Below the pieces are notes generated by a model. That model saw nothing but the letters and a program-made list of their open reading frames with translations. It ran no database searches and had not been told where the DNA came from. The position numbers and the translations under genes were made by a program. A DNA stretch of 43,900 nucleotides from Clostridium sp. CAG:448 (lineage in GTDB: Bacteria > Bacillota > Clostridia > Oscillospirales > CAG-272), in contig FR890455.1 of the NCBI GenBank assembly GCA_000433415.1, positions 1 through 43,900 on the forward strand, written 5' to 3'. Each line of letters opens with the position of its first letter. Within the stretch, counting starts at the first letter, position 1. Of this stretch, positions 5,779 to 35,349 are shown piece after piece.

Positions 5779-5807
5779 TTGACAGCACGGATGTGATATG
5801 GTATAAT
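5779..5807 (+). promoter_or_regulatory. Candidate sigma-A promoter (proximal, P2) of the Opp-like operon
   Basis: TTGACA (5779-5784), a 17-nt spacer, then TGgTATAAT (extended -10, TATAAT at 5802-5807). It lies about 120 nt upstream of the ATG at 5936. Confidence 0.6.
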
Positions 5808-5935
5808 AACAGAAAGGCTTTGTTCCCGCATGCGCAGTGAACTGCAGAGAAAGGGTTCGGGCAAAAAATAAAGGAAATATACTGGCGCACAGTTACTGCA
5901 CGCCGCTATATAATTTTTGAATGGAGGAATCCGCA

Positions 5936-8230
5936 ATGAAAAAATTCAGATTACTTGCACTTGTGCTGGCACTTCTGATGGTTGTTCCGTTTGTTGCATC
6001 CTGCACGGACAAAAAGGATGACAACACAACAACTGCAGCTGACAGCAAGGGCACCGAGACCGGTGACACAACGTCTGCCGGTGATAAGGTGAAGGGTGAT
6101 ATCGATCCCGCGGATGCAGTGGACCACAAGGACTTTACATCCGTCTATGAAAAGATCGGCTCCAAAGTTACCATTGATATGGTTACTGAGGACGAAGAGG
6201 GCCTGGCTTGGGTTACTGTCGAGGGTGTCAAGTACGAGCTCGGCATGGACTTTTTGTCCATGGCAATGGTTTACAGAACCGATGTTCCTGCAAACAGCGA
6301 GAAGTACAAGACCGCCGATGACGTTTACAACGAATGGTGGAAGCTCTACATCCAGAGATGGAACTACCTGGTTCCCGAAATTCCGCTTTATTCCAACCAG
6401 TACTTTGATCTCTACAACGCAAAGATCGAGGGACTTGTAACGACTCCTTACTGGGGGCCCGCAGATGCGATCGTCGCTGCGAAGGTTACGACCGCTGATA
6501 ACAGCGTAATCCTCGGTAGTTCAACTGACCTGTCCGGTTCGTTCCGTAACTCATCCTGGGGCAAGTCCAACCCCGGTTCTTCTGACTTGGATATCCAGAA
6601 TCTGACCACCGGTTATTCCATCATCATGGCCAGCAAGGACGGTAACTACAGTTGGAACGAGGGTGTTGTTGACGGTACGCCTGCTTCCAAGGTCAACGAA
6701 GACGGCACGCTTACCTTCACCATCAAGATCAAGAAGGATCTGAAGTTCAGCGACAATTCCGCAATCAACGCAAAGAACTATATTGCGGCACTGCTGTCCA
6801 ACTCCACTCCTGTCGGTGCGGCTGCAGGCGGTAGCGGTACTGCGGGTCAGACTGTTGTTGGCTTTGCTGAGTTCAGTGCTTATGACGGCACGAACGACGG
6901 CAAGGAAGTCGGCGACAAGAACAAAGTGACCGCAACGAAGTTCTTCAAGGGCGTTCAGTTGCTGGATGATTACACCTTCGCTGTGACCTATACTTCCGAT
7001 TATGCAGGTTACTACTACTCCATTGTCAATGCAGGCTTCTCTCCTGACCCGCTACCGCTCTACCTCGGCTCCGAGGGTGCGATCGTTGTCGATGAGGCAA
7101 CCAAGGCTTGCGGTCTGAACGATGCATTCTATGCAAAAGTGACCGAGAACGGCGCGGAAACCTACAAGGTTGCCGGCGAGATCGTTGCAAACATGAAGTG
7201 GAATTCTGCACTGCCTTATTCCGGTCCTTATGTGGTCAGCAACTATGATGACAATACCCACACCGCTACCCTGAAGCTCAACCCCGTATATCCCGGTGAC
7301 AGCTTCCGCGGCAAAGCTTCCATCGCAACCATTACCTACGTCAAGTTGGTAGATGAAACCCAGATGGATATGTTCAAGCAGGGTCAGGTTGACGTGATTG
7401 CCGGTATCACCGGTGGTGACGCTACCAAGGCTGCTCTGAAGATCGTAAATGACAATCCCGACAAGTATAAGGAAACACACTACGACCGTGCCGGCTACGG
7501 TAAGCTCGGCTTCCGTTGCGACTTCGGTTCGACCTCCTTTGCTTCTGTCCGTCGTGCTATTATGCTCACCATTAACCGCAATGAGTTCGCACAGACCTTC
7601 ACCGGCGGTTACGGCAGCGTTGTTCACGGCCCGTATTATGAAGGTTCCGCTGCTTACAAGGCTGTAAAGGATACCATTAAGCTGAATGTTTACACCTACA
7701 GCGTGCAGAGCGCAATTGACGAACTGGTTGATGGCGGTTGGATCTACAATGAAAAGGGTGAAAAGTTTGATGCTGCCAAGGATACTGTCCGTTACAAGAA
7801 GCTGAGCGGCTATGAGCTGAGCTCCGATAACCTCAAGTTCAAGTCCACGGACGGCAAGTACAGTGTGATTAAACTGGACGGTGAGTACTATATGCCTCTG
7901 GTTGTCAACTGGTATGGCACACAGCCCAACGCCGTAACCGATCAGCTGGTTACCGCATGGCAGACTGCCAAGGCTGCGAAGGACATCGGTATGTATATCA
8001 CCTACACCTCTACGGAATTCAACCCCGGTATCTACGGTGAGTTGTATCGCATGGAGGAGAATGGTTATGACGGCACACCGAAGCTGAATGCGATTAACTT
8101 CGCTACCGGTTTCACCAGCGCAGTTTATGACTACGCCTTCAACTGGACGCTGAACCAGAATATGTACAACGATTACAACTCCGCACACCTGATGGATGAG
8201 GCTGACTTCTACGAGAAATATACCAAATAA
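5936..8230 (+). CDS. ABC transporter substrate-binding lipoprotein, family 5 (Opp/Dpp/Nik type), unusually large at 764 aa
   Basis: Lipoprotein signal MKKFRLLALVLALLMVVPFVASC, then a T/D/G/K-rich linker. The family-5-like core includes TFTIKIKKDLKFSDNSAINAKNY. RBS GGAGGAA lies at 5923-5929. The gene sits directly upstream of OppBCDF-type genes. Confidence 0.85.
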   Translation: MKKFRLLALVLALLMVVPFVASCTDKKDDNTTTAADSKGTETGDTTSAGDKVKGDIDPADAVDHKDFTSVYEKIGSKVTIDMVTEDEEGLAWVTVEGVKYELGMDFLSMAMVYRTDVPANSEKYKTADDVYNEWWKLYIQRWNYLVPEIPLYSNQYFDLYNAKIEGLVTTPYWGPADAIVAAKVTTADNSVILGSSTDLSGSFRNSSWGKSNPGSSDLDIQNLTTGYSIIMASKDGNYSWNEGVVDGTPASKVNEDGTLTFTIKIKKDLKFSDNSAINAKNYIAALLSNSTPVGAAAGGSGTAGQTVVGFAEFSAYDGTNDGKEVGDKNKVTATKFFKGVQLLDDYTFAVTYTSDYAGYYYSIVNAGFSPDPLPLYLGSEGAIVVDEATKACGLNDAFYAKVTENGAETYKVAGEIVANMKWNSALPYSGPYVVSNYDDNTHTATLKLNPVYPGDSFRGKASIATITYVKLVDETQMDMFKQGQVDVIAGITGGDATKAALKIVNDNPDKYKETHYDRAGYGKLGFRCDFGSTSFASVRRAIMLTINRNEFAQTFTGGYGSVVHGPYYEGSAAYKAVKDTIKLNVYTYSVQSAIDELVDGGWIYNEKGEKFDAAKDTVRYKKLSGYELSSDNLKFKSTDGKYSVIKLDGEYYMPLVVNWYGTQPNAVTDQLVTAWQTAKAAKDIGMYITYTSTEFNPGIYGELYRMEENGYDGTPKLNAINFATGFTSAVYDYAFNWTLNQNMYNDYNSAHLMDEADFYEKYTK

Positions 8231-8295: not shown

Positions 8296-8326
8296 GCAGA
8301 AGCGGCAAATCATTTGCCGCTTCTGC
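8296..8326 (+). terminator. Intra-operon stem-loop (partial terminator or mRNA stabiliser) between the binding-protein and permease genes
   Basis: Perfect 12-bp stem GCAGAAGCGGCA/TGCCGCTTCTGC with a 7-nt loop. No U-run follows, so attenuation or processing is more likely than full termination. Confidence 0.5.
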
Positions 8327-8386: not shown

Positions 8387-9409
8387 ATGGGAAAATACAT
8401 ACTGAAACGATTGCTATACATAGTGCTTGTATTTCTGATATTGTCTTTTTTGATGTATCTGATTTACAATATGCTGCCGGTCGATAAAGCCGCTGCGAAA
8501 GCAAGTGAAGAAGTAAAACTGAGCAAGGGCAAATTGGATTACGATGAGCGATATGCATTCTGGCAGAAGCGTTACGGAACAGACGGAAACCTGATGGAAC
8601 GCTACGGTCGCTGGATCGGCGTTTATCCGTACTCTGACGGGTCTTTCAACGGCATGTTGCAGGGAAATTTGGGCGAATCCTCGGAAAAAGGATTGCCCGT
8701 GACCGAATTGCTCAAAGAGCCGATGAAGAATACGGTGTTCATCAATATTTTTGCAACCATTCTGGCACTGGGAATCACGATTCCTTTGGGCATTTTCTGT
8801 GCGGTCAAACGTGGATCGCGCCGCGATGTTGCCGTACAGATCGGCACCATTGTCGGTTATAGTTTACCTACATTTATTATTGCAATTGTCTTTATCTGGC
8901 TGTTTGCCGTTGTACTCGGCTGGTTCCCTGTCGCAGGGATGCAGACCGCCGGATATACGGAGTGGTCACCGATGCGTCAGTTCTGGGACAGAATGTACCA
9001 TTACGCACTGCCGCTGATCATTATGACTTTCTGCTCTTTGGGCGGAATGACCCGGTATGTACGTGCCTCCATGATTGAAGCGCTCAACATGGATTGCATC
9101 CGTACCGCACGCGCCAAAGGCTTGCGTGAGAAGGTCGTTATTTATACACACGCATGGAGAAATGCGCTGATTCCGATCGTGACGCTTGTCATCGGTTGGT
9201 TCCTTGGCATTTTTTCCGGTTCTTTGATGATCGAAAATATCTTTGCTTTGAACGGTGTCGGTAAGATGTACTACACTGCGCTGACGACCAATGACAACGA
9301 AGTTGTGTTGGCGTTGCAGATGTTCTATGTCCTGCTCGGCTTGTTGGGCAACCTGATTATAGATATCACATACGGATTCGTCGACCCGCGTATCCGTGTC
9401 AACAAATAA
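8387..9409 (+). CDS. ABC transporter permease, OppB/DppB type
   Basis: The N-terminus MGKYILKRLLYIVLVFLI is typical, and the protein is polytopic with a BPD_transp_1-like core (RTARAKGL motif). Confidence 0.9.
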   Translation: MGKYILKRLLYIVLVFLILSFLMYLIYNMLPVDKAAAKASEEVKLSKGKLDYDERYAFWQKRYGTDGNLMERYGRWIGVYPYSDGSFNGMLQGNLGESSEKGLPVTELLKEPMKNTVFINIFATILALGITIPLGIFCAVKRGSRRDVAVQIGTIVGYSLPTFIIAIVFIWLFAVVLGWFPVAGMQTAGYTEWSPMRQFWDRMYHYALPLIIMTFCSLGGMTRYVRASMIEALNMDCIRTARAKGLREKVVIYTHAWRNALIPIVTLVIGWFLGIFSGSLMIENIFALNGVGKMYYTALTTNDNEVVLALQMFYVLLGLLGNLIIDITYGFVDPRIRVNK

Positions 9410-9427: not shown

Positions 9428-11371
9428 ATGGCTGAGAAGAAGCAGGAAACAAAAAAATCCTCCAACGGGTTTGCGCCGTGGAGATGGATCCGACGCATGT
9501 TCATGGGCGCCAGCAAAGAGCTGTCCCAGGAGGAAATCCTGGCAGTTGAAAAGCTGGAGAGCCCGTCCAAACTGGCAGTGAAGGCGTTCTTCCGCCGTAA
9601 ATTGGCGGTGGTTGCGCTCATCGTGCTGATTTCTCTGTTTGCATTTGTCTTTATCGGACCGCTGTTTTTGCCGATGGATGTGAACTTCACCGACGCAAAC
9701 CAGGCAAATATCGGACCGGTAATGTCGATGCGCAGCGTGCCGTCCGGTATGAAAAATCAGATCCGGACGATTAACGGCTATGCAAACTTTACCGTCGGCG
9801 TTTCCGAGGATAACACCCTCTATATTTGGGGGTATAGCAAGGATGCGTTGACCAAGGTGGATTATTCCAAGACCCCTGAGGAGATTCAGAATGGTAAGGT
9901 GTACCTTGCCGCCACCGGTCGTGACCATGTGATTGCCGTAACGACGGACGGTCAGATTGTCGGTTGGGGTGATAAATCCCGCGGACAGTACGGCGTATTT
10001 AACGGGAATGAAGAGGATCCGATCATTCAGATGCCGGATGAATTGCTCAACGGTAAAATTGAAGATGTTTCCAAAATTTCCTCACTTGCCTGCGGCTATC
10101 AGGCTTCCGCCATTGTCATTGACGGTAAGCTGTATGCCTGGGGAAATACCAAGGCTTGCCTGAACCTGGAGGCGGCAACGAAGCTGGAACGTACCGATGT
10201 CAAAAAAGTGGTGTTCTCCAACTATTACATTCTGGTACAGTTTGAGGACGGGAGCATATCCTGTCCGGGCGGAATTCTGAACAATGAGCGTATCAATACC
10301 GCAGACGGAACGCGCGTCAAGCTTTTGACTTATCTGAAAGATCAGACGGTGGTTGACATTGCGGCAACCAAGGATTGCTTTGCCATTCTTCTGGATGGCG
10401 GCGAGGTGATCATACAGGGTGCCTCCAAGTACAACGAGGACGTTGTGCCGGAGCTTCCCGCCGGAGAGAAACTGGTCAGTGTGTCGGGCGGTGCCAACCA
10501 TTTTGTCGGCGTCAGCGATGCCGGCAAGGCATATGCCTGGGGTTCCAACGACAAGGGTCAGTGCGATAAGATCAACGGTCAGGCGTGCGCAACTGCCTAT
10601 ACGGGTGCGTACCAAACTTACCTGGTTGACGAAAACGGCAGTCTTGTCCGGAGTGCGGGTCTGCGCGGATACCTGTTCGGAACCGATTCCAACGGACGTG
10701 ATACCTTTACTAGGATTATGCACGGCGGTAAGATGACCATGACCATCGGTGCGGTAGCCGTCATTGTTTCCTCTGTGATTGCCATTATCATCGGCTGTCT
10801 GTCGGGTTATTTCGGCGGCTGGGTTGATATGGTGCTGATGCGTATTACGGAAATTTTCTCGGCAATTCCGTTTTTGCCGTTCGCTATGATGCTTTCGTAT
10901 GTCCTCTCGAAACGACCGATCAGTGAGAATATGCGGATTTTCATCATCATGATTATCCTCGGTCTGCTCTCATGGACGGGTCTTGCCCGCATGATCCGCG
11001 GACAGGTGCTTGCAGAGCGTGAGAAGGAATTCGTAACCGCAGCCAAATCCATGGGTGTCAAAGAGGGACGCATTGCGTTCAAGCATATTTTGCCCAACGT
11101 GATTTCCGTTATTTTGGTCAGTATGACGTTGGATTTTGCCGGCTGTCTGCTGACGGAGTCTTCGTTGTCTTACCTTGGCTTCGGCGTTCAGCAGCCCCGT
11201 CCGACATGGGGAAATATGCTGAACGGTGCCAATAACTCCATCGTAATTCAGAACTATTGGTGGCAGTGGGTGTTCCCGGCAATTTTCCTTGCGATTGCAA
11301 CCATCAGCATCAATATTATCGGCGATACATTGCGTGATGTTCTTGACCCCAAGAGCAGTCAGGAAAAGTAA
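9428..11371 (+). CDS. ABC transporter permease, OppC/DppC type, with a roughly 310-aa RCC1-like beta-propeller inserted in the first extracytoplasmic loop
   Basis: TM1 spans aa 58-81. Seven RCC1-type repeats follow, for example ATGRDHVIAVTTDGQIVGWGDKSRGQYG and GGANHFVGVSDAGKAYAWGSNDKGQCD. Then come the OppC hallmark GTDSNGRDTFTRIMHGG and the MetI-like TM core. Confidence 0.9.
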   Translation: MAEKKQETKKSSNGFAPWRWIRRMFMGASKELSQEEILAVEKLESPSKLAVKAFFRRKLAVVALIVLISLFAFVFIGPLFLPMDVNFTDANQANIGPVMSMRSVPSGMKNQIRTINGYANFTVGVSEDNTLYIWGYSKDALTKVDYSKTPEEIQNGKVYLAATGRDHVIAVTTDGQIVGWGDKSRGQYGVFNGNEEDPIIQMPDELLNGKIEDVSKISSLACGYQASAIVIDGKLYAWGNTKACLNLEAATKLERTDVKKVVFSNYYILVQFEDGSISCPGGILNNERINTADGTRVKLLTYLKDQTVVDIAATKDCFAILLDGGEVIIQGASKYNEDVVPELPAGEKLVSVSGGANHFVGVSDAGKAYAWGSNDKGQCDKINGQACATAYTGAYQTYLVDENGSLVRSAGLRGYLFGTDSNGRDTFTRIMHGGKMTMTIGAVAVIVSSVIAIIIGCLSGYFGGWVDMVLMRITEIFSAIPFLPFAMMLSYVLSKRPISENMRIFIIMIILGLLSWTGLARMIRGQVLAEREKEFVTAAKSMGVKEGRIAFKHILPNVISVILVSMTLDFAGCLLTESSLSYLGFGVQQPRPTWGNMLNGANNSIVIQNYWWQWVFPAIFLAIATISINIIGDTLRDVLDPKSSQEK

Positions 11372-11391
11372 GAGCGGAGGTGAATGACGAA

Positions 11392-12411
11392 ATGGCATTA
11401 TTGGAAGTAAAAAACCTGCACACCTATTTCAAGACCCGAAAGGGAATTGTCAAGGCTGTCAACGACGTTTCCTATTCACTGGATGAAAAACGCACCATTG
11501 GTATTGTCGGAGAGTCCGGATCCGGAAAGAGCGTTTCTGCGATGAGCATTCTGCGCCTTTTGGATTCCAACGGATATATTGCCGAGGGGGAAATCCTGTT
11601 TGAAGGCAAGGACCTGACCAAGTTCTCCCAAAAACAGATGTACGATATCCGAGGCAATCAGATTTCGGTTATTTTCCAGGAGCCGATGACCTCCTTGAAC
11701 CCTGTGTTCACGGTCGAGAGACAGTTGTCCGAACCTTTTATGATTCACCAGAATATGGGGAAAAGAGAAGCGGCAAAGCATGCGCTGCAAATGCTTTACG
11801 ATGTGCAGATTCCGAACCCGGAGGCAGTCATCAAGCAGTATCCGCACCAGCTTTCCGGCGGTATGCGGCAGCGTGTGATGATTGCGATGGCATTGGCTTG
11901 CCGTCCTAAAATTCTGATTGCCGATGAGCCGACGACGGCGCTGGACGTGACTATCCAGGCGCAGATTCTCCGGCTGATGAACGATTTACAGCGTGAGAAC
12001 GGGACGTCTATTATTTTTATCACGCACGATTTGGGCGTTATCAACGAAATGGCTGACGACGTGGTGGTTATGTACTGCGGTCAGGTCGTGGAACAGGCAT
12101 CGGCGCGTGTCATTTTTACTGATTGCAAGATGAGCCATCCGTATACGGAAGGCCTGATGAACAGTATTCCGCGGATTGATAACATTACCCATAAACTGGA
12201 ACCGATCCCCGGCGTGGTTCCTCACCCGCTTGCATTGCCGAAGGGATGTAAGTTTGCCCCTCGTTGCAAGTATGCGACGCAGAAATGTCTGGACGGAGAG
12301 CCGGCACTTGTTGAGGTTTGCCCCGGTCAGAAAATCCGTTGCTTCTATCCCGAAAAGGAGGTGAGAAACAGTGCCGAACACAAAAAAGCTCTTATCAATC
12401 ACGAATCTTAA
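11392..12411 (+). CDS. ABC transporter ATP-binding protein, OppD/DppD type; an alternative GTG start lies at 11380
   Basis: Walker A GESGSGKS, signature LSGGMRQR, Walker B ILIADEPTTALD, and a C-terminal oligopeptide-type extension (HPYTEGLMNSIP). GGAGG lies at 11376-11380. Confidence 0.9.
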   Translation: MALLEVKNLHTYFKTRKGIVKAVNDVSYSLDEKRTIGIVGESGSGKSVSAMSILRLLDSNGYIAEGEILFEGKDLTKFSQKQMYDIRGNQISVIFQEPMTSLNPVFTVERQLSEPFMIHQNMGKREAAKHALQMLYDVQIPNPEAVIKQYPHQLSGGMRQRVMIAMALACRPKILIADEPTTALDVTIQAQILRLMNDLQRENGTSIIFITHDLGVINEMADDVVVMYCGQVVEQASARVIFTDCKMSHPYTEGLMNSIPRIDNITHKLEPIPGVVPHPLALPKGCKFAPRCKYATQKCLDGEPALVEVCPGQKIRCFYPEKEVRNSAEHKKALINHES

Positions 12412-13963
12412 GAAATATTTCCCTATCGCCAAGTCCAGCATCTTCCAGAAACAGCAGTACTATGTCAAGGCAAACGAGGATATTACACTGGACATTTACG
12501 AGGGCGAAACGCTCGGTATCGTGGGTGAGTCCGGTTGCGGAAAATCCACGCTTGGACGTGTTCTGTTGCAGTTGTATGAGCAGACTGCCGGCACAACCAT
12601 GTATTATGGTGTTTCCCGTGCAGAGGTCGCCCCGCGGTATGTTTTGGATACGCTTCGGCATGTGGATAAGTACAAGGCAAGATTGCAAAAGGCAAAAGCT
12701 CATGCAAAGGCGATGGCGGAGAAGGCAGATGCGTTAGGTGATCAGGCGTCGTTTTTTGACCTGCAGAACAAAAACCTGGCACTGGCAGAGGCACAGACTG
12801 CGGAGGCTCACATTGCCAAGATCCTGGGCGGATTCCTGGTGCGGGATACCAAAACGGGGGCCGCGCTGCTTTACAAGAAGGCGTTGCTCGCAGATGCAAG
12901 TGCCGCATTGAATGAACGGATCCGTGATGTTGACCTGCTTTTGGATGAAACTGCCGATGACGATCAGAAACCGTTGAGTGCGGCGAAACGCAAGAAACTG
13001 CTTGATGCTCGCTCCGCGTTGTCCACACAGCGGGATCAAAAGAAAGCGCATATGTCCGAGCTGGATCAAAAGATCGCGACGGCGAAAAAGCCATATCTTG
13101 ACGATCCGGAGTTTTTGAAGTACGAGGAGATGCTGGATGATGGCATTGACCTTGCTCGGCTGAAATATTCCGAAATGCGCCTTTTGCGCAAAGATTTGCA
13201 ATTGGTTTTCCAGGATCCGTATTCCTCCCTCAACCCGCGTATGACGGTGGGACAAATCATTGAGGAGGGCTTGGTGGCACACAAGTTCTACCGGCATGGT
13301 TCCCCGAAGATGAAGGAGCATATTTTGAATGTGATGCGGATGTGCGGCTTGCAGGATTATATGTTGCACCGCTATCCCCACCAGTTTTCCGGTGGCCAGC
13401 GTCAGCGGATTTCGATTGCCCGTGCGCTTGCCGTTCACCCCAAATTTGTGGTTTGCGACGAGTGCGTCAGCGCGCTGGACGTGTCCATTCAGTCGCAGAT
13501 TATCAACCTGCTTTTGGAGCTGAAGGAAAAAGAGCATCTGACCTATATGTTCATTTCCCATGACCTGTCGGTTGTCCGTTATATTTCGGACCGTATCTGC
13601 GTGATGTATTTGGGTAACATTGTGGAATTGGCGGACGCGGCGACCATCTTTGATGACCCCCGTCACCCGTACACAGTGGCACTGCTTTCATCGATTCCTA
13701 CGACTGACCCGGACAGCTTGCAGAAAGAGCGGATTCTTCTGGAGGGGAATATCCCCAGCCCGATTAAGCCGCCGTCCGGCTGTAAATTCCATACGCGTTG
13801 CTATATGGCGTGCGATAAATGCAAGCGCGTTCCGCCTGCGTTGACGGAGGTGGAGCCGGGACATTTTGTTGCCTGCCATTTCCCGCAGCGTAAAATTGAT
13901 GAAAAGGGGAATTACCTGTTTGAATTGCCTGCCACGGAAAGGAAATCGGCGCGTGTCGATTGA
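12371..13963 (+). CDS. ABC transporter ATP-binding protein, OppF/DppF type, with a roughly 175-aa helical insertion
   Basis: Walker A GESGCGKS at aa 52-59, Q-loop QLVFQDP only at aa 277-283, signature FSGGQRQR, Walker B FVVCDECVSALD. The GTG start sits 9 nt after GGAGG and overlaps the upstream gene by 41 nt. Confidence 0.9.
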   Translation: MPNTKKLLSITNLKKYFPIAKSSIFQKQQYYVKANEDITLDIYEGETLGIVGESGCGKSTLGRVLLQLYEQTAGTTMYYGVSRAEVAPRYVLDTLRHVDKYKARLQKAKAHAKAMAEKADALGDQASFFDLQNKNLALAEAQTAEAHIAKILGGFLVRDTKTGAALLYKKALLADASAALNERIRDVDLLLDETADDDQKPLSAAKRKKLLDARSALSTQRDQKKAHMSELDQKIATAKKPYLDDPEFLKYEEMLDDGIDLARLKYSEMRLLRKDLQLVFQDPYSSLNPRMTVGQIIEEGLVAHKFYRHGSPKMKEHILNVMRMCGLQDYMLHRYPHQFSGGQRQRISIARALAVHPKFVVCDECVSALDVSIQSQIINLLLELKEKEHLTYMFISHDLSVVRYISDRICVMYLGNIVELADAATIFDDPRHPYTVALLSSIPTTDPDSLQKERILLEGNIPSPIKPPSGCKFHTRCYMACDKCKRVPPALTEVEPGHFVACHFPQRKIDEKGNYLFELPATERKSARVD

Positions 13964-14199: not shown

Positions 14200-14240
14200 G
14201 GAATCGCTACAAGGCGTTTGGCTTGTGGCGATTCCTTTTG
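14200..14240 (+). terminator. Rho-independent terminator of the Opp-like operon
   Basis: 14-bp stem (GGAATCGCTACAAG/CTTGTGGCGATTCC, one G-U pair), 8-nt loop, then TTTT. Confidence 0.7.
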
Positions 14241-18630: not shown

Positions 18631-19166
18631 ATCAATTTAGGGCATTTTGCACCCATGAATTGCGATGCAGGCGCCCGTCGTGCACAAACGCCTCTTGAAT
18701 AAGGAGGCGTTTGCGCAAAAGAACCGCCGCGGCAGGTGGCGTCCGGGACCGAGGGACGGCATTTGCAGCGGCGGGTCTTGGCCGAAGCTTTTGCAGCGGC
18801 GTGTCTTGACCGACAATTGCATAGCAATCATGCTGAATGCCGCGGATCGTGACTCCCGGGATGCCCGTTTATCGTGCGGATCGGGAGGAGACGATGGGCT
18901 TTTTACCGGCGCGAGCCGTGTAGAGGTGCGGTCCGGTCGTACGTTGCCGGATACCGTTGCTGCGGTTGCTGCGAAAGCGAGACCGTGCATTGCTTGCCGA
19001 CGGATTGTTTCCTTGTTTCCTTGAGATCGGTTCTGCTCGGAACGGATGGCAGGGGAAGAGGCGATTTGCCGGCGGCGGGCACAGGTATGATTGGCGGCGC
19101 ACAATACCCCAATTGGGTCGGCGGTTTTCCGCGCCGGATCCAAAGAAATGCAGGAGGAAAGGTTTA
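18631..19166 (+). promoter_or_regulatory. Long (about 535 nt) GC-rich non-coding 5' leader with hairpins and short tandem repeats
   Basis: No protein-like ORF exists on either strand. A 10-bp hairpin CAAACGCCTC/GAGGCGTTTG lies at 18685-18714. A 24-nt direct repeat TTTGCAGCGGCG(G/T)GTCTTG(G/A)CCGA occurs at 18762-18785 and 18790-18813. GTTGCTGCG occurs twice (18956-18973) and TTGTTTCC twice (19005-19020). Confidence 0.4.
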
Positions 19167-22100
19167 ATGAAGAAAACGAAATTCCAAAGATTCGCGGCGT
19201 GCCTTCTCGCGCTTACAATGCTTCTGGGATCCGCTCTGGTTTCTGTCAGTGCGGCAACCGGGACATCTGATGCGTCGAGCGGTTCGTCCGTTACGGACAA
19301 GAGTCTGCAGGAAATCCGCGAGTTGCTCAATGCGATTTCGTACAGTGAGTACGTTCTGTCCGACGTATTTACCACGACTGGATACGCAAAGGAGCAGATT
19401 GTCATCGATGTGCTGGCAGATATTGATACGAGCAGAGACGGAAACTGCTACATTGACGATGAAAAGGTCAAAGAGCTGACCGCGGGCGGAAATGCAGATA
19501 AGGTGAATGACTATGCACATAAGTCCACCCTTTACCGTGACGCAGACGGCAATGAGATTGAGAGCCTTTATACGCCGTCCAACGGTTCCGTGTCTTGGAA
19601 GGTGGAACTCAGCGAAAGCGCCAAGTATGCCATCGTGATCGAATATTACGCGGTGACGGGCAAGGCGACGGCTGTGGAACGTGTTTTCAAAATCAATGAT
19701 AAAGTGCCTTTTTCCGAGGCGCGTTACCTGACGCTGAACAAAAACTGGGTGACAGAGCCTGTCCAGTATCAGTTGCGTGACGGCGAAACGGCTGAAAGTG
19801 CGAAAGCGGATTTGGAATCGATCGGTTTGACCGTTACCAAGGATGAGAGCGGAAATCTTTACTGTGCAATTCCGGAGGTTTGGGATGAAGAACTTGTCAA
19901 GGCGTGTGAAGATCGCGGCTTGCGCTTCTTCTTGACTGACGTTACCAATAATGAGATCCGCAGTGCCGCGGTGCAGGCGCCTGTGTGGACAAATTATTAT
20001 CTGCGCGATTCCAGCGGATACTATACAGATAACTTTGTTTTTGCCCTGGAGAAGGGAACCAACATCCTGACCCTGGAAGGCAAGAACGAACCCCTTGCAA
20101 TCAAATCCATTCGCCTGGTTCCGGTGGAAGAAACGCCGACCTATGATGAGTACATCAAGAATCTGGGGAGTGTGAAGAACAATGCCAACAGCACAGTGCG
20201 TCTGGAAGCGGAGTATCCCAATGCCACTTCCTCCAAGACCATTTATCCGACTGAGGACCGTTCCGATGCTGCGAACTCGCCGTCGGATGTTTCCCGCACG
20301 GTGATGAATACGCTGGGTGGTGAAAAATGGCAGACTGCCGGTCAGTATGTCGAGTACAACTTCCGCGTCAGCGGCTCGGGTATGTATGACCTGATTTCCC
20401 ATTTCCGCCAAAATATCCTGGACGGCATGTATGTGTGCCGCAGCCTGGAGATTTACAGCCATAACGTGGAAGAGGGAACTGCCGGCTACTACAACGGTGC
20501 ACCCTTTGAAGAAGCAAAGTCGTTGCGCTACAATTACAGTGCCAACTGGAATGTAACAAAACTGACAGACGGATCCACCGGGTCGGACGGTAAGACCCGC
20601 AACTACCCAATCTACTTTGTGGGAACCGACGATAATAAGGATGCATATTACACCATCCGTTTTGTGGTTACGCTCGGCTCCATGGGTGATATTGTCCGCG
20701 AAGTACAGGAAATTTTGAATTCCGTCAACAATGACTATCTGAACATCCTTCGTCTGACCGGTGCAAACCCCAATACATACAACTCTTACGGATTCTCCCG
20801 CGTCATGCCGGATACCCTGATCGACATGATCGTACAGTCCAGAAGACTGGACAATTCCGAAAACAAGAACAATAAGAATTATCAGCCTGGACTTGCGGAA
20901 CGGTTGACCACCCTGGCAGGACAGAAATCCTCTAACGTTGGTACGCTGCAGCGGATCGCGGATCTGCTCAAGAAGATGGGAACCGACGAAGAAGAAATTC
21001 CCACGAACCTTGAAAACCTCAAGACCTATATCGGGACCCTGGGAACCTTCCTTTCGGACGCACAGACACAGCCGCTGCTTCTTGACTATATCCTGATTCG
21101 TCCTGCGGATTCTGCCGAAAAGATGCCACGCGGCAAGGCGGGATTCTTCCAGGCGATTGCGCACGAAGTCTCCGGCTTCTTCATGAGCTTTGTCCGTGAC
21201 TATAACAGCATGGGTTCCATGGACGAGGATGCGGACAAGAGCATTGAAGTATGGCTGGCATACGGACGTGACCAATCTCAGGTTATCCGTAACCTGATTA
21301 ACAATGACTTTACACCGAATACCGGTGTTGCGGTTGACCTGAAGCTGGTTGCGGCTGCAACTCTTCTGCCTTCCATTTTGTCTGGCTCCGGACCGGATGT
21401 TTATCTGGGGCTGGGACAGGCGGATGTTATCAACTACGCGATTCGTTCTGCACTGATCAATATTGATGACCGTGCGGATTTTGCTGAAGTGCGTGACAAC
21501 TTCAACGATGCAGCAATGCTGGTGCTTGGTATTGAAGATGCAGACCAGATCATGCATTACTACGGGCTGCCTGAAACGCAATCCTTTACCATGATGTTTG
21601 TCCGTGACGACGTGCTTGCAGACCTCGGTCTGGAAGTACCCAAGACATGGGACGATATTCTGGCGGCGGTTCCAGTGCTCCAGTCGCAGAAGATGGAAAT
21701 CGGTCTGACCACGGACTTCCAGATTTTCCTGTATCAGCGCAACGGTGAGCTGTTTGCGGATAACGGTATGAGAATCAACCTGGATTCGGTTGTGGGACTT
21801 TCTTCCTTCGAATATATGTGTAACCTGTTTACGCAGTATTCTTTCCCGTATACCTACAATGCGGCAAACCGTTTCCGTACCGGTGAAATGCCGATCATCA
21901 TCGGTGATTACACCGCTATGTACAACCAACTGAAGGTTTTTGCAACTGAAATCGAAGGCGCATGGGAATTCCTTCCGATGCCCGGTATCAAGCAGGAAGA
22001 CGGCAGTATCAACAATGTGTCGATTTCTTCCATTGCGGCTGTTGTCATGGTGTCCGGCGTTGAGGACAAAGACAGCGCTTGGGAGTATATGAAGTGGTAC

Positions 22101-22871
22101 ACCGGAAAGGATTGCCAGAGCGACTATACCAACGAGATGGTTGCAATCCTTGGTCCTTCCGCAAAGCACCCGACGGCGAATAAGTACGCGCTGGAGGATT
22201 TGCCCTGGACGACCTCGGAGCTGGCACAGGTGCAGGCACAGTTCAACAACCTCGCGGCAGTGCCGAACTATCCCGGTGCTTACATTATCGGTCGTTATAC
22301 CAACTTCGCATTCCTGTCCGCTTATAACGACAAAGCTGACCCTGCCGAATCCATTCTTTCTTACGTGCCGACCATCAACAAGGAAATTACACGTAAGCGG
22401 AACGAATTCAAGCTGGAAACCCTGGAGGCGGGCGAAACGCTTGCAAGCAAGCGTTTGAACCAGGCAACCGGTCTGCTCGATAAGATTGAGAAGAACAGCG
22501 ACTATAAGAGCGATTATGCAGAGGTAATCCGTGAGGCGAAGGCTGCAATCAAAGATCAGAACGAAAACGGTCTGATGATGGCGGCGGAAAAATTGCGCGG
22601 AATTCTGCGTGAACTGGATCCGAATTATCAGTATGTCGAATCTCATGCGAACGACGGTAATACCAATTATAAGAACAGTACTTATTGGAAGAATCTTGAA
22701 TCACTCATGGGCTACGATATGAATGATTTAAGCCTGACAAACAAAGAGAAGAAAAAGCTGAGAAAGTGCTACTACTACGAAGCCTACGATCTGACAGACG
22801 AGATGGCAACGCTTCTGCACTTTGCCGCTGAGTATATGGAAGACGCAGCAGCTGCGCTTTCCACATATTGA
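19167..22871 (+). CDS. Giant secreted ABC substrate-binding protein (family 1 core) with a roughly 690-aa N-terminal extension carrying two CBM-like modules, plus a C-terminal helical tail
   Basis: AGGAGG (19152-19157) precedes the ATG at 19167. Signal peptide MKKTKFQRFAACLLALTMLLGSALVSVSA. CBM-like segments include SWKVELSESAKYAIVIEYY... and RLEAEYPNATS...GEKWQTAGQYVEYNFRVSGSGMYDL. The binding-protein core starts near aa 691 (IEVWLAYGRDQSQVIRNLINNDFTPNTGVAVDLKLV...). The track ORF start at 18957 is an extension. Confidence 0.85.
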   Translation: MKKTKFQRFAACLLALTMLLGSALVSVSAATGTSDASSGSSVTDKSLQEIRELLNAISYSEYVLSDVFTTTGYAKEQIVIDVLADIDTSRDGNCYIDDEKVKELTAGGNADKVNDYAHKSTLYRDADGNEIESLYTPSNGSVSWKVELSESAKYAIVIEYYAVTGKATAVERVFKINDKVPFSEARYLTLNKNWVTEPVQYQLRDGETAESAKADLESIGLTVTKDESGNLYCAIPEVWDEELVKACEDRGLRFFLTDVTNNEIRSAAVQAPVWTNYYLRDSSGYYTDNFVFALEKGTNILTLEGKNEPLAIKSIRLVPVEETPTYDEYIKNLGSVKNNANSTVRLEAEYPNATSSKTIYPTEDRSDAANSPSDVSRTVMNTLGGEKWQTAGQYVEYNFRVSGSGMYDLISHFRQNILDGMYVCRSLEIYSHNVEEGTAGYYNGAPFEEAKSLRYNYSANWNVTKLTDGSTGSDGKTRNYPIYFVGTDDNKDAYYTIRFVVTLGSMGDIVREVQEILNSVNNDYLNILRLTGANPNTYNSYGFSRVMPDTLIDMIVQSRRLDNSENKNNKNYQPGLAERLTTLAGQKSSNVGTLQRIADLLKKMGTDEEEIPTNLENLKTYIGTLGTFLSDAQTQPLLLDYILIRPADSAEKMPRGKAGFFQAIAHEVSGFFMSFVRDYNSMGSMDEDADKSIEVWLAYGRDQSQVIRNLINNDFTPNTGVAVDLKLVAAATLLPSILSGSGPDVYLGLGQADVINYAIRSALINIDDRADFAEVRDNFNDAAMLVLGIEDADQIMHYYGLPETQSFTMMFVRDDVLADLGLEVPKTWDDILAAVPVLQSQKMEIGLTTDFQIFLYQRNGELFADNGMRINLDSVVGLSSFEYMCNLFTQYSFPYTYNAANRFRTGEMPIIIGDYTAMYNQLKVFATEIEGAWEFLPMPGIKQEDGSINNVSISSIAAVVMVSGVEDKDSAWEYMKWYTGKDCQSDYTNEMVAILGPSAKHPTANKYALEDLPWTTSELAQVQAQFNNLAAVPNYPGAYIIGRYTNFAFLSAYNDKADPAESILSYVPTINKEITRKRNEFKLETLEAGETLASKRLNQATGLLDKIEKNSDYKSDYAEVIREAKAAIKDQNENGLMMAAEKLRGILRELDPNYQYVESHANDGNTNYKNSTYWKNLESLMGYDMNDLSLTNKEKKKLRKCYYYEAYDLTDEMATLLHFAAEYMEDAAAALSTY

Positions 22872-22909
22872 CCGTCTTCCGATTATAAATCCACAAAGGA
22901 GAAACGCAT

Positions 22910-23857
22910 ATGTCAGAAAGAACGGCAACTAAAAAAGCTGTTTCGCGGAAAGATATGACCAAGGCGCAGTGGACATGGAAAGAGATGAAGCGCAACTGGG
23001 TTGCCTATGTAATGGTTGCCCCGTACATGATTCTCTTTACGCTGTTTACCGTTGTGCCGGTGGTGCTTTCCATCTTCATCAGCTTTACGGACTTCAATAT
23101 GCTGGAATGGCCGAACTTCGTTTTTCTGGACAACTACATCACGTTGTTCTTTGATGACGATATTTTCCTCATTGCAGTCAAAAACACTTTCATTTTCGCG
23201 GTGATTGTCGGACCTGCCTCCTACCTGATGTCTTACATGGTGGCGTGGTTCATCAATGAATTGCCGCCTAAGATCCGGGCGGTTGTAACCCTGATCTTCT
23301 ACGCGCCTTCCATTTCCGGTCAGGTTTACTTGATTTGGGGTACCTTGTTCTCGTCCGACTCCTATGGTTGGGTCAACGCAACATTGCTCAAACTTGGACT
23401 GATTGACAAGGAGATTTTGTTCTTCCAGGATGAAAAATACGTAATGCCTCTGTGTATTATCGTTTCGCTTTGGACCTCGTTGGGTACTTCCTTCCTGGCG
23501 TTTATCGCAGGTTTGCAGGGGGTTGACCGCTCGCTTTACGAAGCGGGTGCGGTGGACGGTGTCAAGAACCGTTGGCAGGAACTTTGGTATATTACGTTGC
23601 CGTCTATGAAGCCGCAGTTGATGTTTGGTGCGGTGATGTCCATTACCGGTTCGTTTGGATTTGGCGGTATCGTTACCGCGCTTGCCGGTTTCCCGTCCGT
23701 CAACTACTGTGCACATACCATCATGCACCATCTGGAAGACTACGGCGGACAGCGATATGAAATCGGTTATTCTTCTACCATCGCGGTCATTCTGTTTGCC
23801 ATTATGATGGGCGCGAACATGTTGGTGAAGAAAATACTCTCGAAGGTAGGTACGTAA
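22910..23857 (+). CDS. Carbohydrate ABC transporter permease (MalF/LplB-like), pair 1
   Basis: Six-TM MetI-like pattern with EAA loop LYEAGAVDGVKNRWQELWYITLPSMKP. RBS AAAGGAG. Confidence 0.9.
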   Translation: MSERTATKKAVSRKDMTKAQWTWKEMKRNWVAYVMVAPYMILFTLFTVVPVVLSIFISFTDFNMLEWPNFVFLDNYITLFFDDDIFLIAVKNTFIFAVIVGPASYLMSYMVAWFINELPPKIRAVVTLIFYAPSISGQVYLIWGTLFSSDSYGWVNATLLKLGLIDKEILFFQDEKYVMPLCIIVSLWTSLGTSFLAFIAGLQGVDRSLYEAGAVDGVKNRWQELWYITLPSMKPQLMFGAVMSITGSFGFGGIVTALAGFPSVNYCAHTIMHHLEDYGGQRYEIGYSSTIAVILFAIMMGANMLVKKILSKVGT

Positions 23858-23860
23858 GTT

Positions 23861-24733
23861 ATGGCGAAATTAAGAACAAGAAAACATAAAGTCGTACTTG
23901 CCCGTTCCGCGGGGGGCGATGCATTTATCACTGTAATTTTGGTCATCCTGGGCGCATTTATGTTCCTGCCGATGCTGTATGTGTTCATGCAGGCGCTGAA
24001 GCCGTTGGATGAGTTGTGGATGTACCCGCCACGCTTCTACGTGATGAGCCCGACCTTATCCAACTTTACGGATTTGTTCCAGCTCATGAACACTTCCTGG
24101 GTTCCGTTTTCCCGTTACGTTTTCAATACCGTTCTGACGTCCGTTGCCGGTACTTTCGGACACCTGTTCCTTGCATCTCTTGCGGCATACTGCATGGCAA
24201 AGATCAAGTTTCCCGGGCGCAACGCCATGTTCTGGACGGTACAGACCTCACTGATGTTCAACTCCACCGTTACGACCATTACCTCCTTCATTCTGATGTC
24301 GGCTTTGGGTTGGTTGGATACCTACTGGGCGCTGATCGTTCCTGCGTGGTGTAGTTCCTTGGGACTTTATCTGATGAAGCAGTTCATGGATACCAACATC
24401 ACCGATGCGGTTTTGGAGTCCGCGCGGCTTGACGGCGCGAGAGAATTGCGCATTTATTGGACCATTGCGATGCCCATGGTTAAGCCTGCATGGCTGACCC
24501 TGATCATTTACTGCTTCCAGAACCTGTGGAATGCGGGAGCTTCTATGTACATTTACTCCGAGCAGTTGAAATCCTTCAACTATGCCATCGGTCAGATTAC
24601 CGCGGGCGGTATCAAGCGTGCCGGTGCGTCGGCAGCCGCTTCTGTGGTCATGATGATGGTGCCGATCATTGTGTTTGTTATTTCACAGTCCAACATCATT
24701 GAGACCATGGGCTCCAGTGGTATGAAGGACTGA
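23861..24733 (+). CDS. Carbohydrate ABC transporter permease (MalG/LplC-like), pair 1
   Basis: EAA loop VLESARLDGARELRIYWTIAMPMVKP. It starts 3 nt after the upstream stop. Confidence 0.9.
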   Translation: MAKLRTRKHKVVLARSAGGDAFITVILVILGAFMFLPMLYVFMQALKPLDELWMYPPRFYVMSPTLSNFTDLFQLMNTSWVPFSRYVFNTVLTSVAGTFGHLFLASLAAYCMAKIKFPGRNAMFWTVQTSLMFNSTVTTITSFILMSALGWLDTYWALIVPAWCSSLGLYLMKQFMDTNITDAVLESARLDGARELRIYWTIAMPMVKPAWLTLIIYCFQNLWNAGASMYIYSEQLKSFNYAIGQITAGGIKRAGASAAASVVMMMVPIIVFVISQSNIIETMGSSGMKD

Positions 24734-24749
24734 TAAGGGAGGGAACGAA

Positions 24750-26915
24750 ATGAAAAAACTGACCGCAATATTTTGTGTCGTCTTCGTTGCGCTCTTGCTC
24801 CTGACGGCGTTTCCGCTCCGTGCCAGTGCCGGCTCGGCATATCAGACTTATACATACTCCATTGACGGCTATGCCCTGTATTCGCCGGATGCGTATACGG
24901 CTGTAACCACTGTGGACTCGGAGTATATGGGATTGCTGGATAAGTCATTGTTCGCAAATCCTGTTGCGATTGATAATCCCGGCGATATGGTTACGGATGA
25001 CGACGGCAATGTTTACATCGCCGATACCGGTAATAACCGGATCGTTGTTTTGGACCGTTACTATAAGGTGCGTTTTGTAATTACCGAATTCCGGAACGAT
25101 CAGGGCGTTGCGGATGCACTGACGGCGCCGCAGGGTGTGTTCGTCACCGACGAAAACATTTGGGTTTGCGACTCAGGTGCCAACCGGATCGTGGCATTCG
25201 ACCGGGACGGTAACTTTGACCGCCTTGTCGAGGAACCGGAAAGTGAATTGTTTGAATCCGATTCCGTTTATAAGCCGGTTGCGATGGCAGTCGACCAATA
25301 CGGCAGACTGTATGTCGTTTCTTCTACGACTTATCAGGGAATCATTGTCATGACCAATGACGGTGAGTTTAACGGTTTTATCGGTACACAGGCAGTGGCG
25401 CTTTCCGCTTGGGAAATCCTTTGGCGTCGTTTCCAAACCGACGCGCAGAAGGAATATGCCGATGAAGTTGTCGCAACCGAGTTCAATAACATTACGATCA
25501 ACAAAGACGGTTTCATTTATGTAACCACCTCTTCCATTAAGGATTCCTCTGTAGAGAGTGCAATCAAGGGAAAAGATAAGAAGGGTACATACATGCCGGT
25601 CAAGATGCTGAATGCCAACGGCGATGAAATCATGCGCCGGAACGGCTTCTGGGCTCCTGCCGGAGAGATTGACTATGCTACGGAATCCACTGCGGAAATC
25701 CGCGGCGTATCCACAATCATTGACGTTGCTGTCGGTGAAGAAGGCACGTGGTCCATCATTGACGAAAAGAGAAACCGTGTTTATACCTACGATTTTGACG
25801 GAAACCTGCTTTACGCTTTCGGCGACAGCGGCACCATGTTGGGCGGTCTTGCCAGTGTGGAGGCAATCACGTATCAGGGCGATACCATGCTGATACTGGA
25901 TAAGACCAACGACAACATTACGGTGTTCAACCGTACCGAGTACGGTGATATTCTGATTCAGGCATTGGCGGCAGAAAACACACAGGATTACGATCTTGCC
26001 ATCAACCTGTGGACGGAAGTTCTGAAGCGTAACAACAACTTCGATGCGGCATACGTCGGTATCGGAGATGCGATGTACCGGAACGGACAGTATCAGGAAT
26101 CGCTTGCCTACTATGAGGCTGCGTATGAAACGACCGGCTGGTCCAAGTCCTATAAGGAAATCCGTACAGAGTGGATGTCAACCTACTTCTTGCTGTTCGT
26201 TGTCATCATTGTTGCCGTCATTGTTGGTGTGGTTCTCTTGTTCAAGACAATGGGAAAGATCAACAAGAAAGCAACTCACAACGGCAGAGCCCGCAAAACC
26301 TACGGACAGGAAGTTGCGTATGCGTTCCACGTTATCGCACATCCGTTTGACGGTTTTTGGGATCTGAAGCATGAGCACAGAGGTTCTGTGCGCGGTGCAC
26401 TGACCATTATTGCCGTTACCGTTCTTGTGTTCTTCTATCAGGCAATCGGTTCCGGTTATCTGGTCAATCCGTATGGTGGTTACACTACGATTTTCACGCA
26501 GTTGCTTGCTGTCCTGGTTCCTCTGTTCCTGTTCGTTGTGGCAAACTGGTGTCTGACCACCTTGTTTGACGGCGAAGGTAGCTTTAAGGATGTGTTCATC
26601 GCGGCAGGATACAGCCTGACACCGATCCCGCTGTTGGTTCTTCCTGCGACCATCTACTCCAACTTTGCAATCAGCACCGAGGTGGATATCATTTCCTTTG
26701 TGGGAACCTTGGCGTTTATCTGGATGGGAATTCTCCTGTTCTTCGGTACGCAGGTTACGCATGACTACGGTATCGGCGGAAATGTCCTTGCCATTCTGGG
26801 AACCGCTGTGGGTATGATCTTTATCATGTTCTTTGCAATTCTGTTTTCCACGCTTGTCGCAAAGCTGGTCAGCCTTGTGACCAACATTGTGGTGGAGTTG
26901 CAGTACAGAATGTAA
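24750..26915 (+). CDS. Membrane protein with a signal peptide, a six-bladed NHL-repeat propeller, a TPR-like segment, one TM helix and a C-terminal Yip1-like multi-TM domain
   Basis: NHL repeats include PGDMVTDDDGNVYIADTGNNRIVVLD and PQGVFVTDENIWVCDSGANRIVAFD. TPR-like segment AYVGIGDAMYRNGQYQESLAYYEAAYE. TM helix at aa 477-498. Yip1-like region HPFDGFWDL...FDGEGSFKDVFIAAGYSLTPIPLL. RBS GGGAGGG. Confidence 0.85.
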   Translation: MKKLTAIFCVVFVALLLLTAFPLRASAGSAYQTYTYSIDGYALYSPDAYTAVTTVDSEYMGLLDKSLFANPVAIDNPGDMVTDDDGNVYIADTGNNRIVVLDRYYKVRFVITEFRNDQGVADALTAPQGVFVTDENIWVCDSGANRIVAFDRDGNFDRLVEEPESELFESDSVYKPVAMAVDQYGRLYVVSSTTYQGIIVMTNDGEFNGFIGTQAVALSAWEILWRRFQTDAQKEYADEVVATEFNNITINKDGFIYVTTSSIKDSSVESAIKGKDKKGTYMPVKMLNANGDEIMRRNGFWAPAGEIDYATESTAEIRGVSTIIDVAVGEEGTWSIIDEKRNRVYTYDFDGNLLYAFGDSGTMLGGLASVEAITYQGDTMLILDKTNDNITVFNRTEYGDILIQALAAENTQDYDLAINLWTEVLKRNNNFDAAYVGIGDAMYRNGQYQESLAYYEAAYETTGWSKSYKEIRTEWMSTYFLLFVVIIVAVIVGVVLLFKTMGKINKKATHNGRARKTYGQEVAYAFHVIAHPFDGFWDLKHEHRGSVRGALTIIAVTVLVFFYQAIGSGYLVNPYGGYTTIFTQLLAVLVPLFLFVVANWCLTTLFDGEGSFKDVFIAAGYSLTPIPLLVLPATIYSNFAISTEVDIISFVGTLAFIWMGILLFFGTQVTHDYGIGGNVLAILGTAVGMIFIMFFAILFSTLVAKLVSLVTNIVVELQYRM

Positions 26916-26936
26916 CTTAGAGGAGAGGAGAAAAAA

Positions 26937-31670: not shown

Positions 31671-31684
31671 TGGGAGGTGTGAAG

Positions 31685-32674: not shown

Positions 32675-32692
32675 AGAAAGGAGGAGCAGAAA

Positions 32693-33802: not shown

Positions 33803-33841
33803 TCCGATCGGCAGATGATCTTACAACAGGGATTGTGACAC

Positions 33842-33869
33842 ACATTCAAACAAACATTCAAACAAACAT
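33842..33869. repeat. Short tandem repeat, 12-mer ACATTCAAACAA x 2.3
   Basis: Read directly from the sequence. It lies between the operon's last stop codon and its terminator hairpin. Confidence 0.9.
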
Positions 33870-33873
33870 AAAG

Positions 33874-33904
33874 GAAAGCCGTTATCCGTGGGATAGCGGC
33901 TTTC
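33874..33904 (+). terminator. Terminator hairpin after the seven-gene operon
   Basis: 14-bp stem GAAAGCCGTTATCC/GGATAGCGGCTTTC (one G-U pair), loop GTG, weak T-rich tail (TCTCTG). Confidence 0.6.
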
Positions 33905-33934
33905 TCTGAGAAGGCGAAGTATTGCGGGAGAGAT

Positions 33935-35284: not shown

Positions 35285-35349
35285 CGTATTTGGAACCATG
35301 GATTAACATAAATACTGCTTTTTGAAAAGCGGTAGGTAAGGAGAGGGCA

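Follow-up and report, generated by a model that had tools for sequence, protein, structure and literature searches.

We analysed a 43,900-nucleotide stretch of Clostridium sp. CAG:448 DNA (contig FR890455.1, positions 1 to 43,900 of the forward strand; hereafter, the window), which carries on its positive strand a five-gene oligopeptide transporter (Opp)-type operon in the order binding protein, oppB, oppC, oppD and oppF. The gene that concerns us here is oppC (9428-11371, positive strand), a single uninterrupted open reading frame (ORF) for a permease of 647 amino acids (aa), most of whose central part is an insert predicted to be a beta-propeller. The protein is an Opp/Dpp-family ATP-binding cassette (ABC) importer permease of the OppC type. 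Pfam recognized OppC_N (PF12911) at aa 45-97 (41.1 bits, cut-off 23.9) and BPD_transp_1 (PF00528) at aa 452-642 (124 bits), and between them three stretches of RCC1_2 (76 bits, cut-off 22), the best at aa 350-378; RCC1 reached 33 bits over the whole protein, above its cut-off of 21.7, and WD40_RLD scored 98.6 bits, under its cut-off of 150. The GTDxxGRD motif lies at aa 418-425, ahead of the second transmembrane (TM) helix, and an EAA-like loop at aa ~534-556. A phmmer search of Protein Data Bank (PDB) sequences matched the core to Escherichia coli OppC with E = 2.5e-51. None of the curated NCBIfam equivalog models (OppC, DppC, NikC, Opp1-4C, GsiD, SapC and others) had its cut-off reached: the best was Opp4C, with 306.2 bits for a cut-off of 350, and all the rest were further below theirs.

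The same phmmer alignments located the insert with respect to the membrane helices. Residues 50-93 of the query aligned with residues 29-72 of E. coli OppC, which include TM1, and residues 413-643 aligned with 80-301, i.e., E. coli residues 72-80 are swapped for residues 93-413 of the window protein, so that by this alignment about 320 residues stand in place of the about eight of the TM1-TM2 loop. Counted from the N-terminus, the GTDxxGRD motif occurs at 19-121 residues in each of the 14 curated OppC-like NCBIfam models, and at 414 residues here. Between the insert and the EAA loop there are three hydrophobic helices (aa 434-471, 475-494 and 498-524), and the insert must therefore be on the membrane side opposite to that loop. 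In type I importers the EAA loop contacts the ATPases in the cytoplasm, and the OppC chains of the solved complexes 8z21 and 8j5q have both their N- and C-terminus in the cytoplasm. The 57 residues that precede TM1 comprise 13 Lys or Arg against seven Asp or Glu, including FFRRK at the membrane edge, and the 19 residues that follow TM1 contain no Lys or Arg; the tail is basic throughout the family, with a median isoelectric point (pI) of 10.3. The EAA loop, the basic tail (positive-inside rule) and the homology to the solved OppC chains all indicate that the insert is extracytoplasmic.

AlphaFold2 modelling with 28 homologues predicted that about 300 of the ~320 inserted residues fold as a seven-bladed RCC1/BLIP-II-like beta-propeller. 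The predicted local distance difference test (pLDDT) score was 77-95 in 10-residue blocks over aa ~100-412, where the chain formed seven strand groups, the blades listed in Table 1; DSSP assigned to the predicted model three strands of at least three residues in six of the blades and four short ones in blade 4. The membrane core had a pLDDT of 50-70 in the same model, and the orientation of the propeller relative to the membrane domain was modelled without confidence (predicted template-modelling score, pTM, 0.59). Foldseek searches of the PDB gave probability 1.0 for UVR8, BLIP-II, RPGR, HERC2 and RCC1, at identities of 14-20% for these named RCC1-like members. UVR8 had the best E-values (6e-16 with Foldseek, 7e-17 in the sequence search), and BLIP-II (268-273 aa) the highest target-normalised template-modelling score (0.72-0.74, E ~3e-15, 18-20% identity). 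The membrane part of the model matched the OppC proteins of E. coli and Mycobacterium tuberculosis. The propeller is flexibly tied to TM1 through a linker of ~30 residues and leads straight into the entry of TM2. The linker itself is conserved (mean identity among homologues 62%), with D89, N94, P97 and P105 invariant in our alignment A1 and P97 invariant in alignment A3 as well.

These results bear on an earlier note on this DNA, which had proposed an RCC1/BLIP-II-type propeller of seven blades in the first external loop of OppC, next to the surface where the binding protein docks. Its landmarks are present in the translation: TM1 at aa 58-81, GTDSNGRDTFTRIMHGG at aa 418-434, and the three repeat strings that it quoted at aa 161-188, 221-240 and 354-380. 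The coordinates that it gave for the insert, 9740-10664, correspond to aa 105-412 and agree with the confidently modelled propeller (aa ~100-412). Its premise that the loop is usually short holds for E. coli OppC and for the 14 NCBIfam models; the insert lies outside the cell and not in the cytoplasm; and OppC_N, BPD_transp_1, RCC1_2 and RCC1 all scored above their Pfam cut-offs. As for the seven RCC1 repeats, the number is borne out by the seven modelled strand groups, and the WG signature is clear in four blades (W134, W180, W238 and W371), but blades 4, 5 and 7 are degenerate in sequence. The proposed architecture is thus supported by Pfam, the PDB alignment, AlphaFold2 and Foldseek; the position beside the docking surface, which is deduced from the insertion point, is a putative one.

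Table 1. Features of the operon and of the OppC-type permease (coordinates refer to the window)
Feature	Position	Strand	Basis and remarks
Promoter-like site: TTGACA, 17-nt spacer, TATAAT, TG extension	5779..5807	+	12/12 consensus match only
Family-5 substrate-binding lipoprotein, oversized	5921..8230	+	Pfam SBP_bac_5; 769-aa ORF, 764 aa from likely start 5936
Perfect 14-bp stem-loop in the gap (156 nt) between the binding-protein gene and oppB	8296..8326		No T-tract on + strand
OppB-type permease, 340 aa, ordinary size	8387..9409	+	BPD_transp_1; best NCBIfam model Opp4B, 236 bits, under cut-off
OppC cytoplasmic N-terminal tail, aa 1-57	9428..9598	+	Basic; conserved helix WRWIRRMF
OppC TM1, aa 58-81, inside OppC_N domain	9599..9670	+	Pfam, hydropathy, alignment to E. 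coli OppC TM1
OppC extracytoplasmic linker, aa 82-110, conserved	9671..9757	+	Low model confidence (pLDDT <50, aa 82-99)
Predicted seven-bladed RCC1/BLIP-II-like beta-propeller, aa 111-412, in OppC TM1-TM2 external loop	9758..10663	+	Pfam, AlphaFold2, Foldseek, dN/dS
Blade 1, aa 112-135, WG at 134	9761..9832	+	DSSP strands 112-116, 121-126, 131-135
Blade 2, aa 158-181, WG at 180, then GQYG	9899..9970	+	DSSP strands 158-163, 167-172, 177-181
Blade 3, aa 217-240, WG at 238	10076..10147	+	DSSP strands 217-222, 226-231, 234-240
Blade 4, aa 258-298, degenerate	10199..10321	+	DSSP strands 258-264, 267-272, 288-290, 296-298
Blade 5, aa 308-331, degenerate	10349..10420	+	DSSP strands 308-313, 317-322, 327-331
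Blade 6, aa 349-372, GxxH 355-358, WG 371, GQ 377-378	10472..10543	+	DSSP strands 349-354, 358-363, 367-372; best RCC1_2 stretch
Blade 7, aa 389-411, degenerate, straight into GYLFGTD motif	10592..10660	+	DSSP strands 389-392, 396-400, 406-411
OppC core, aa 413-647: GTDxxGRD, TM2-TM6, EAA loop	10664..11371	+	BPD_transp_1; 39% identity to E. coli OppC 8z21_B
OppD-type ATPase, 343 aa, C-terminal oligo_HPY	11380..12411	+	Pfam, NCBIfam
OppF-type ATPase, 530 aa	12371..13963	+	Overlaps oppD by 41 nt; ABC_tran in two stretches
Terminator-like hairpin with T-tract after oppF	14200..14235	+	14-bp stem; tail TTTTGCTT

The N-terminal tail of the permease showed features of its own. W20, R23 and G27 were invariant in alignments A1 and A3, and F25 was invariant in A1 and nearly so in A3; these residues belong to a motif that continues with E41, S45 and P46, and a short helix was modelled at aa 16-26. 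Ahead of the aligned TM1 segment, the E. coli protein is shorter by about 21 residues. One possible role of the tail is to touch the ATPases.

Relatives of the permease are numerous. A whole-protein search retrieved at least 120 clusters (90% identity) that agree with the query in Pfam architecture and in length, share 62-76% sequence identity with it, and have database names that said at most "ABC transporter permease subunit" and assigned them to metagenome-assembled genomes (MAGs) of Clostridia, Oscillospiraceae, Ruminococcaceae or Eubacteriales; the identical 647-aa protein was also present in the protein collection. Contigs from one genome per species contained 139 relatives. The best 80, on which all the locus statistics given here are based (contig ends limit some of these loci), were near-full-length and belonged to uncultured gut Clostridia, among them Faecousia, Candidatus Scatosoma and Candidatus Apopatosoma, along with bins labelled Christensenella, Christensenellaceae or Lachnospiraceae. 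All members of the family are known from MAGs, and the hits had no cultured representatives. In the 80 independent genomes the oppC ORF was continuous and 622-707 aa long, propeller-sized in every locus. Searches with the insert alone pointed in the same direction: a word-index search gave OppC fragments and no free-standing close relatives, and an exhaustive search gave mostly giant multi-repeat surface proteins, whereas the single-stretch full-length hits that we checked (31-52% identity) all had the arrangement OppC_N, propeller, BPD_transp_1 and came, where named, from MAGs of Clostridia. The next-closest RCC1 relatives were large surface proteins of bacteria, in which Big, Flg_new and SpaA domains are present.

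An assembly or gene-calling artefact that joined a separate RCC1 protein to a permease is excluded as an explanation of the fusion by the uninterrupted ORF, the identical protein already known, the ORF of 622-707 aa in 80 genomes and the purifying selection described below. One database protein does look like such a chimera. P0253 (L081 1-2437) consists of OppC_N, five propeller blades and three SLH domains, without a permease core, and follows an OppB C-terminus; since its contig is only 2.4 kb long with 2x coverage and the sequence ceases to follow the family midway through blade 5, it most likely arose as a chimera during assembly, and we dropped it as independent proof that the propeller is extracellular. 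P0284 is equal to P0253 over the first ~320 residues and continues as an arginine-rich, frameshift-like sequence.

The full-length fusion thus occurs in at least 80 species-level genomes, in one operon type, which answers the matter of phylogenetic distribution raised in the earlier note. That note also knew of no functional description of such a permease, and we agree: literature searches on the propeller-bearing OppC architecture returned nothing or unrelated papers, and no NCBIfam cut-off was reached. The domain combination can nevertheless be seen in databases, as the automatic Pfam lists cover these proteins. Propeller-OppC joins a known transporter type to a known fold, a combination of which we found no description.

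The gene order binding protein, OppB, propeller-OppC, OppD, OppF was kept in 80 of 80 related loci, as far as the contigs reach, and the binding-protein gene was found wherever the contig extended far enough upstream. The binding protein was oversized, 703-837 aa, in each of the 72 loci in which its ORF was complete, and in two operons whose propellers are only 31-35% identical it measured 764 and 705 aa. The window OppF carries an insertion too (see below), and this was lost or shortened in ~17 of 73 loci. From the ORF lengths across loci it follows that the propeller is strictly coupled to the oversized binding protein and not to the OppF insertion. Outside the operon no gene was conserved: the commonest flanking family appeared in 14 of the 80 loci, as clade-specific synteny, and the M23 peptidase found upstream in the window was absent from all 80.

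The propeller evolves faster than the membrane core (mean identity within the family 52% and 88%, respectively). Ratios of nonsynonymous to synonymous substitution rates (dN/dS; Nei-Gojobori, 19 independent close pairs) fell between 0.04 and 0.16 in the propeller, as against about 0.01-0.07 in the core, which means that the propeller is constrained, though roughly threefold less than the core. Blade 4 was the most variable blade (mean identity 36%), and just upstream of it the homologues in alignment A3 had insertions of variable length. Structural residues of RCC1 repeats (G, W, GQ, GxxH) made up nearly all of the positions kept across the deepest divergence, and the family alignments revealed no conserved pocket or cluster of non-structural residues in the propeller; this lack of a pocket fits a co-evolving protein interface.

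To compare evolutionary rates along the operon we used pairwise distances from 68 complete operons, with the background given by the two ATPases removed. The residual distances of the propeller and the binding protein were correlated with a partial r of 0.69 over the full region and of 0.55 +/- 0.04 in 80-column subsamples. The values for the propeller with OppB were 0.54 and 0.42, with the OppC membrane domain 0.48 and 0.36, and with the OppC N-terminal tail, a region of similar evolutionary rate, 0.31 and 0.31. Rate variation of the propeller therefore tracks the binding protein more closely than the propeller's own membrane domain, which we regard as suggestive.

Compared with the OppC chains of known structure (E. 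coli OppBCDF, 8z21; M. tuberculosis OppABCD, 8j5q), the window OppC has the same TM1 with OppC_N, the GTDxxGRD motif, five more TM helices and the EAA loop, at 33-39% core identity, and differs in having ~320 residues with a whole propeller where those have a TM1-TM2 loop of ~8. The operon also resembles other Opp systems in its OppB, its two oligo_HPY ATPases and its family-5 binding protein; the binding protein of the window, however, is ~200 aa larger than usual, and its identity to those of known structure is 12-14%. The nearest analogue by function would be MalF, whose P2 loop has micromolar affinity for MalE and does not let go of it during the cycle (PMC6906923). Like the propeller, P2 is a sizeable folded domain that lies outside the cytoplasm, within a membrane-subunit loop of a type I importer and near the docking site. 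It is, however, Ig-like, measures ~185 aa and is placed between TM3 and TM4 of MalF, in contrast to the ~300-aa propeller between TM1 and TM2 of OppC; the two are unrelated in sequence and fold, and for the propeller the binding is putative.

Among propellers, BLIP-II of Streptomyces exfoliatus (PDB 1jtd, 3qi0; RCC1_2) was the best size-normalised match and is likewise extracytoplasmic, compact and seven-bladed; it has three strands per blade, and its action consists solely in binding proteins (PMC6121496). As an inhibitor, BLIP-II is soluble and free, unlike the window propeller, which is built into the chain of a polytopic membrane protein, and there is no reason to expect that the latter binds beta-lactamase. 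With the eukaryotic RCC1-like proteins (UVR8, RCC1, RPGR and the HERC2 RLD) the propeller shares the seven-bladed fold and the GxxH/WG/GQLG signature. Blades in these eukaryotic domains have 51-68 aa; those of the window propeller average ~43 aa and are extracytoplasmic. Nothing in its sequence would lead one to expect Ran guanine-nucleotide exchange, or photoreceptor and UV-B sensing features.

Taking these observations together, we propose tentatively, with a probability of roughly 0.4, that the propeller serves to dock and retain the cognate oversized binding lipoprotein, by analogy with MalF P2. In this role it would keep the large lipoprotein in place, or oriented, on the OppB/OppC surface throughout the transport cycle and make the translocator specific for the binding protein that belongs to it; otherwise the system would work as an ordinary Opp, the binding protein capturing the substrate and delivering it to OppBC for ATP-driven import. 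Of the two functions suggested in the earlier note, the tether for the oversized binding protein gains indirect support from the co-occurrence and the rate co-variation, and the second substrate receptor gained none in this analysis. Several points weigh against this proposal of docking. Evidence for contact between propeller and binding protein is indirect, consisting of their co-occurrence and rate co-variation. The co-occurrence has no negative control, since no propeller-less sister operon was seen among the matches listed (at least 120 clusters; best 80 of 139 loci). As to the co-variation, OppB (0.64) and the OppC membrane domain (0.57) show it with the binding protein too, and rate shifts may be common to all exposed parts. 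Both partners are acidic (median pI 4.4 for the binding protein and 4.8 for the propeller), so there is no gross charge complementarity between them. In addition, many Gram-positive Opp systems with lipoprotein binding proteins function without such a domain. A related and more doubtful idea is that the Opp system is a permanently assembled extracellular machine, in which the propeller would retain on the translocator either the giant lipoprotein or a second partner, e.g., a peptide-releasing hydrolase, and so couple capture with import.

The partner could instead be a protein other than the binding protein, such as a secreted or wall-associated peptidase, a peptidoglycan hydrolase, or a component of the cell wall or S-layer, in which case the generation of substrate or the placement of the transporter would be coupled to uptake. 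RCC1/BLIP-II propellers are generic protein-binding modules, BLIP-II itself binding an enzyme of the penicillin-binding-protein fold (PMC6121496), and both the large surface proteins that are the next-closest RCC1 relatives and the fast evolution of the propeller (52% against 88% identity in the membrane domain), as expected of a domain facing another evolving protein, are in keeping with this. We nevertheless consider it unlikely: no adjacent gene is conserved (14 of 80 loci at most; the M23 peptidase in none of the 80), and the rate co-variation points towards the binding protein. Binding of the substrate or of a related ligand, with the propeller serving as an additional receptor, as a place where the ligand is pre-concentrated or as a size filter over the pathway, appears improbable, even though the propeller adjoins the pathway entrance and there are precedents among other propellers, which gate the access of peptides in prolyl oligopeptidases and bind sugars in some lectins. 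The propeller has no conserved cluster of non-structural residues, three of its seven blades are degenerate, unlike those of multivalent lectin propellers, and a complete cluster-C binding protein is always present for that job; moreover, binding of small ligands is not known to us for any RCC1-like propeller. A purely structural or assembly role without a specific ligand (stabilising the OppB/OppC heterodimer, shielding it, or spacing it from the wall) would account for the conserved positions being mostly fold-determining and is compatible with the want of a confident model for the orientation to the membrane domain (pTM 0.59). Against it, purifying selection has kept seven blades down to 31% identity, which is more than a passive spacer would call for, and OppC homologues elsewhere assemble without a propeller; we judge this role improbable.

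To our knowledge, MalF P2 is the one well-studied folded extracellular domain on the membrane subunit of an ABC importer of type I, and it has shaped current thinking on how binding proteins are recruited. The case described here involves a different fold, a different loop and a different importer family, and has been kept in gut Clostridia across at least 80 species-level genomes, paired with a binding protein of unusual size and divergence. Should docking prove to be its role, the propeller would add a second, independent case of recruitment mediated by the membrane subunit, and it would offer a way towards the substrate of a transporter that is widespread in the gut. If the system is a permanently assembled machine, it would represent an accessory-domain solution new to type I ABC importers and confined to uncultured gut Clostridia, which are abundant; the only other such solution known to us is MalF P2.

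The binding protein has a signal peptide with a lipobox Cys, followed by a low-confidence linker at residues 18-49 (counted from the start at 5936), and is ~200 aa above the usual size. Its AlphaFold2 model had a mean pLDDT of 83 and the fold of cluster C, and Foldseek matched it about equally well to OppA, NikA, AppA and CntA, at 12-14% identity, so that the fold gave no clue to the substrate, which is probably peptide-like. The sole PDB sequence match was OppA 9p48, which is unpublished. In the 769-aa ORF, aa 131-185, YNEWWKLYIQRWNYLVPEIPLYSNQYFDLYNAKIE, aligned with the C-terminal residues 502-556 of 9p48, and residues 425-575 aligned with 166-307. The segment YNEWWKLYIQRWNYLVPEIPLYSNQYFDLYNAKIE is among the most conserved parts of the protein. 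The order of these alignments suggests a putative circular permutation or transposed C-terminal element in this subfamily of binding proteins. The stem-loop that separates the binding-protein gene from oppB (Table 1) may stabilise the mRNA or act as an attenuator, and in this way set how much binding protein is made relative to permease.

In OppF, ~175 extra residues at aa ~85-255 (about 12623-13135) separate Walker A from the Q-loop region, and the alignment with M. tuberculosis OppD and E. coli OppF is resumed at aa 258. The insertion is rich in Ala, Lys, Glu and Leu and has a weak Pfam match to SMC_N. OppF measured 336-603 aa in the 73 related loci: most had the full insertion (526-603 aa), seven an intermediate one, and about ten none (336-382 aa). 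The oligo_HPY C-terminal domains of both ATPases are Cys-rich, with, e.g., CKFAPRCKYATQKC...C in OppD (window 12250-12400) and CKFHTRCYMACDKC...C in OppF (window 13780-13900), and these putative motifs resemble the Fe-S cluster-binding ones reported for Opp/Dpp ATPases.

A second ABC region, of the sugar type and heavily embellished, extends from 18957 to 38397 of the window. It includes a 1304-aa ORF without Pfam match, two BPD_transp_1 permeases and a 721-aa membrane protein with NHL, TPR and Yip1 domains, followed by a 1577-aa DUF5696 protein, two further permeases and a 1015-aa GH84 protein with F5/8 type C domains. The GH84 protein is a beta-N-acetylglucosaminidase, and the region is probably a host-glycan utilisation locus.

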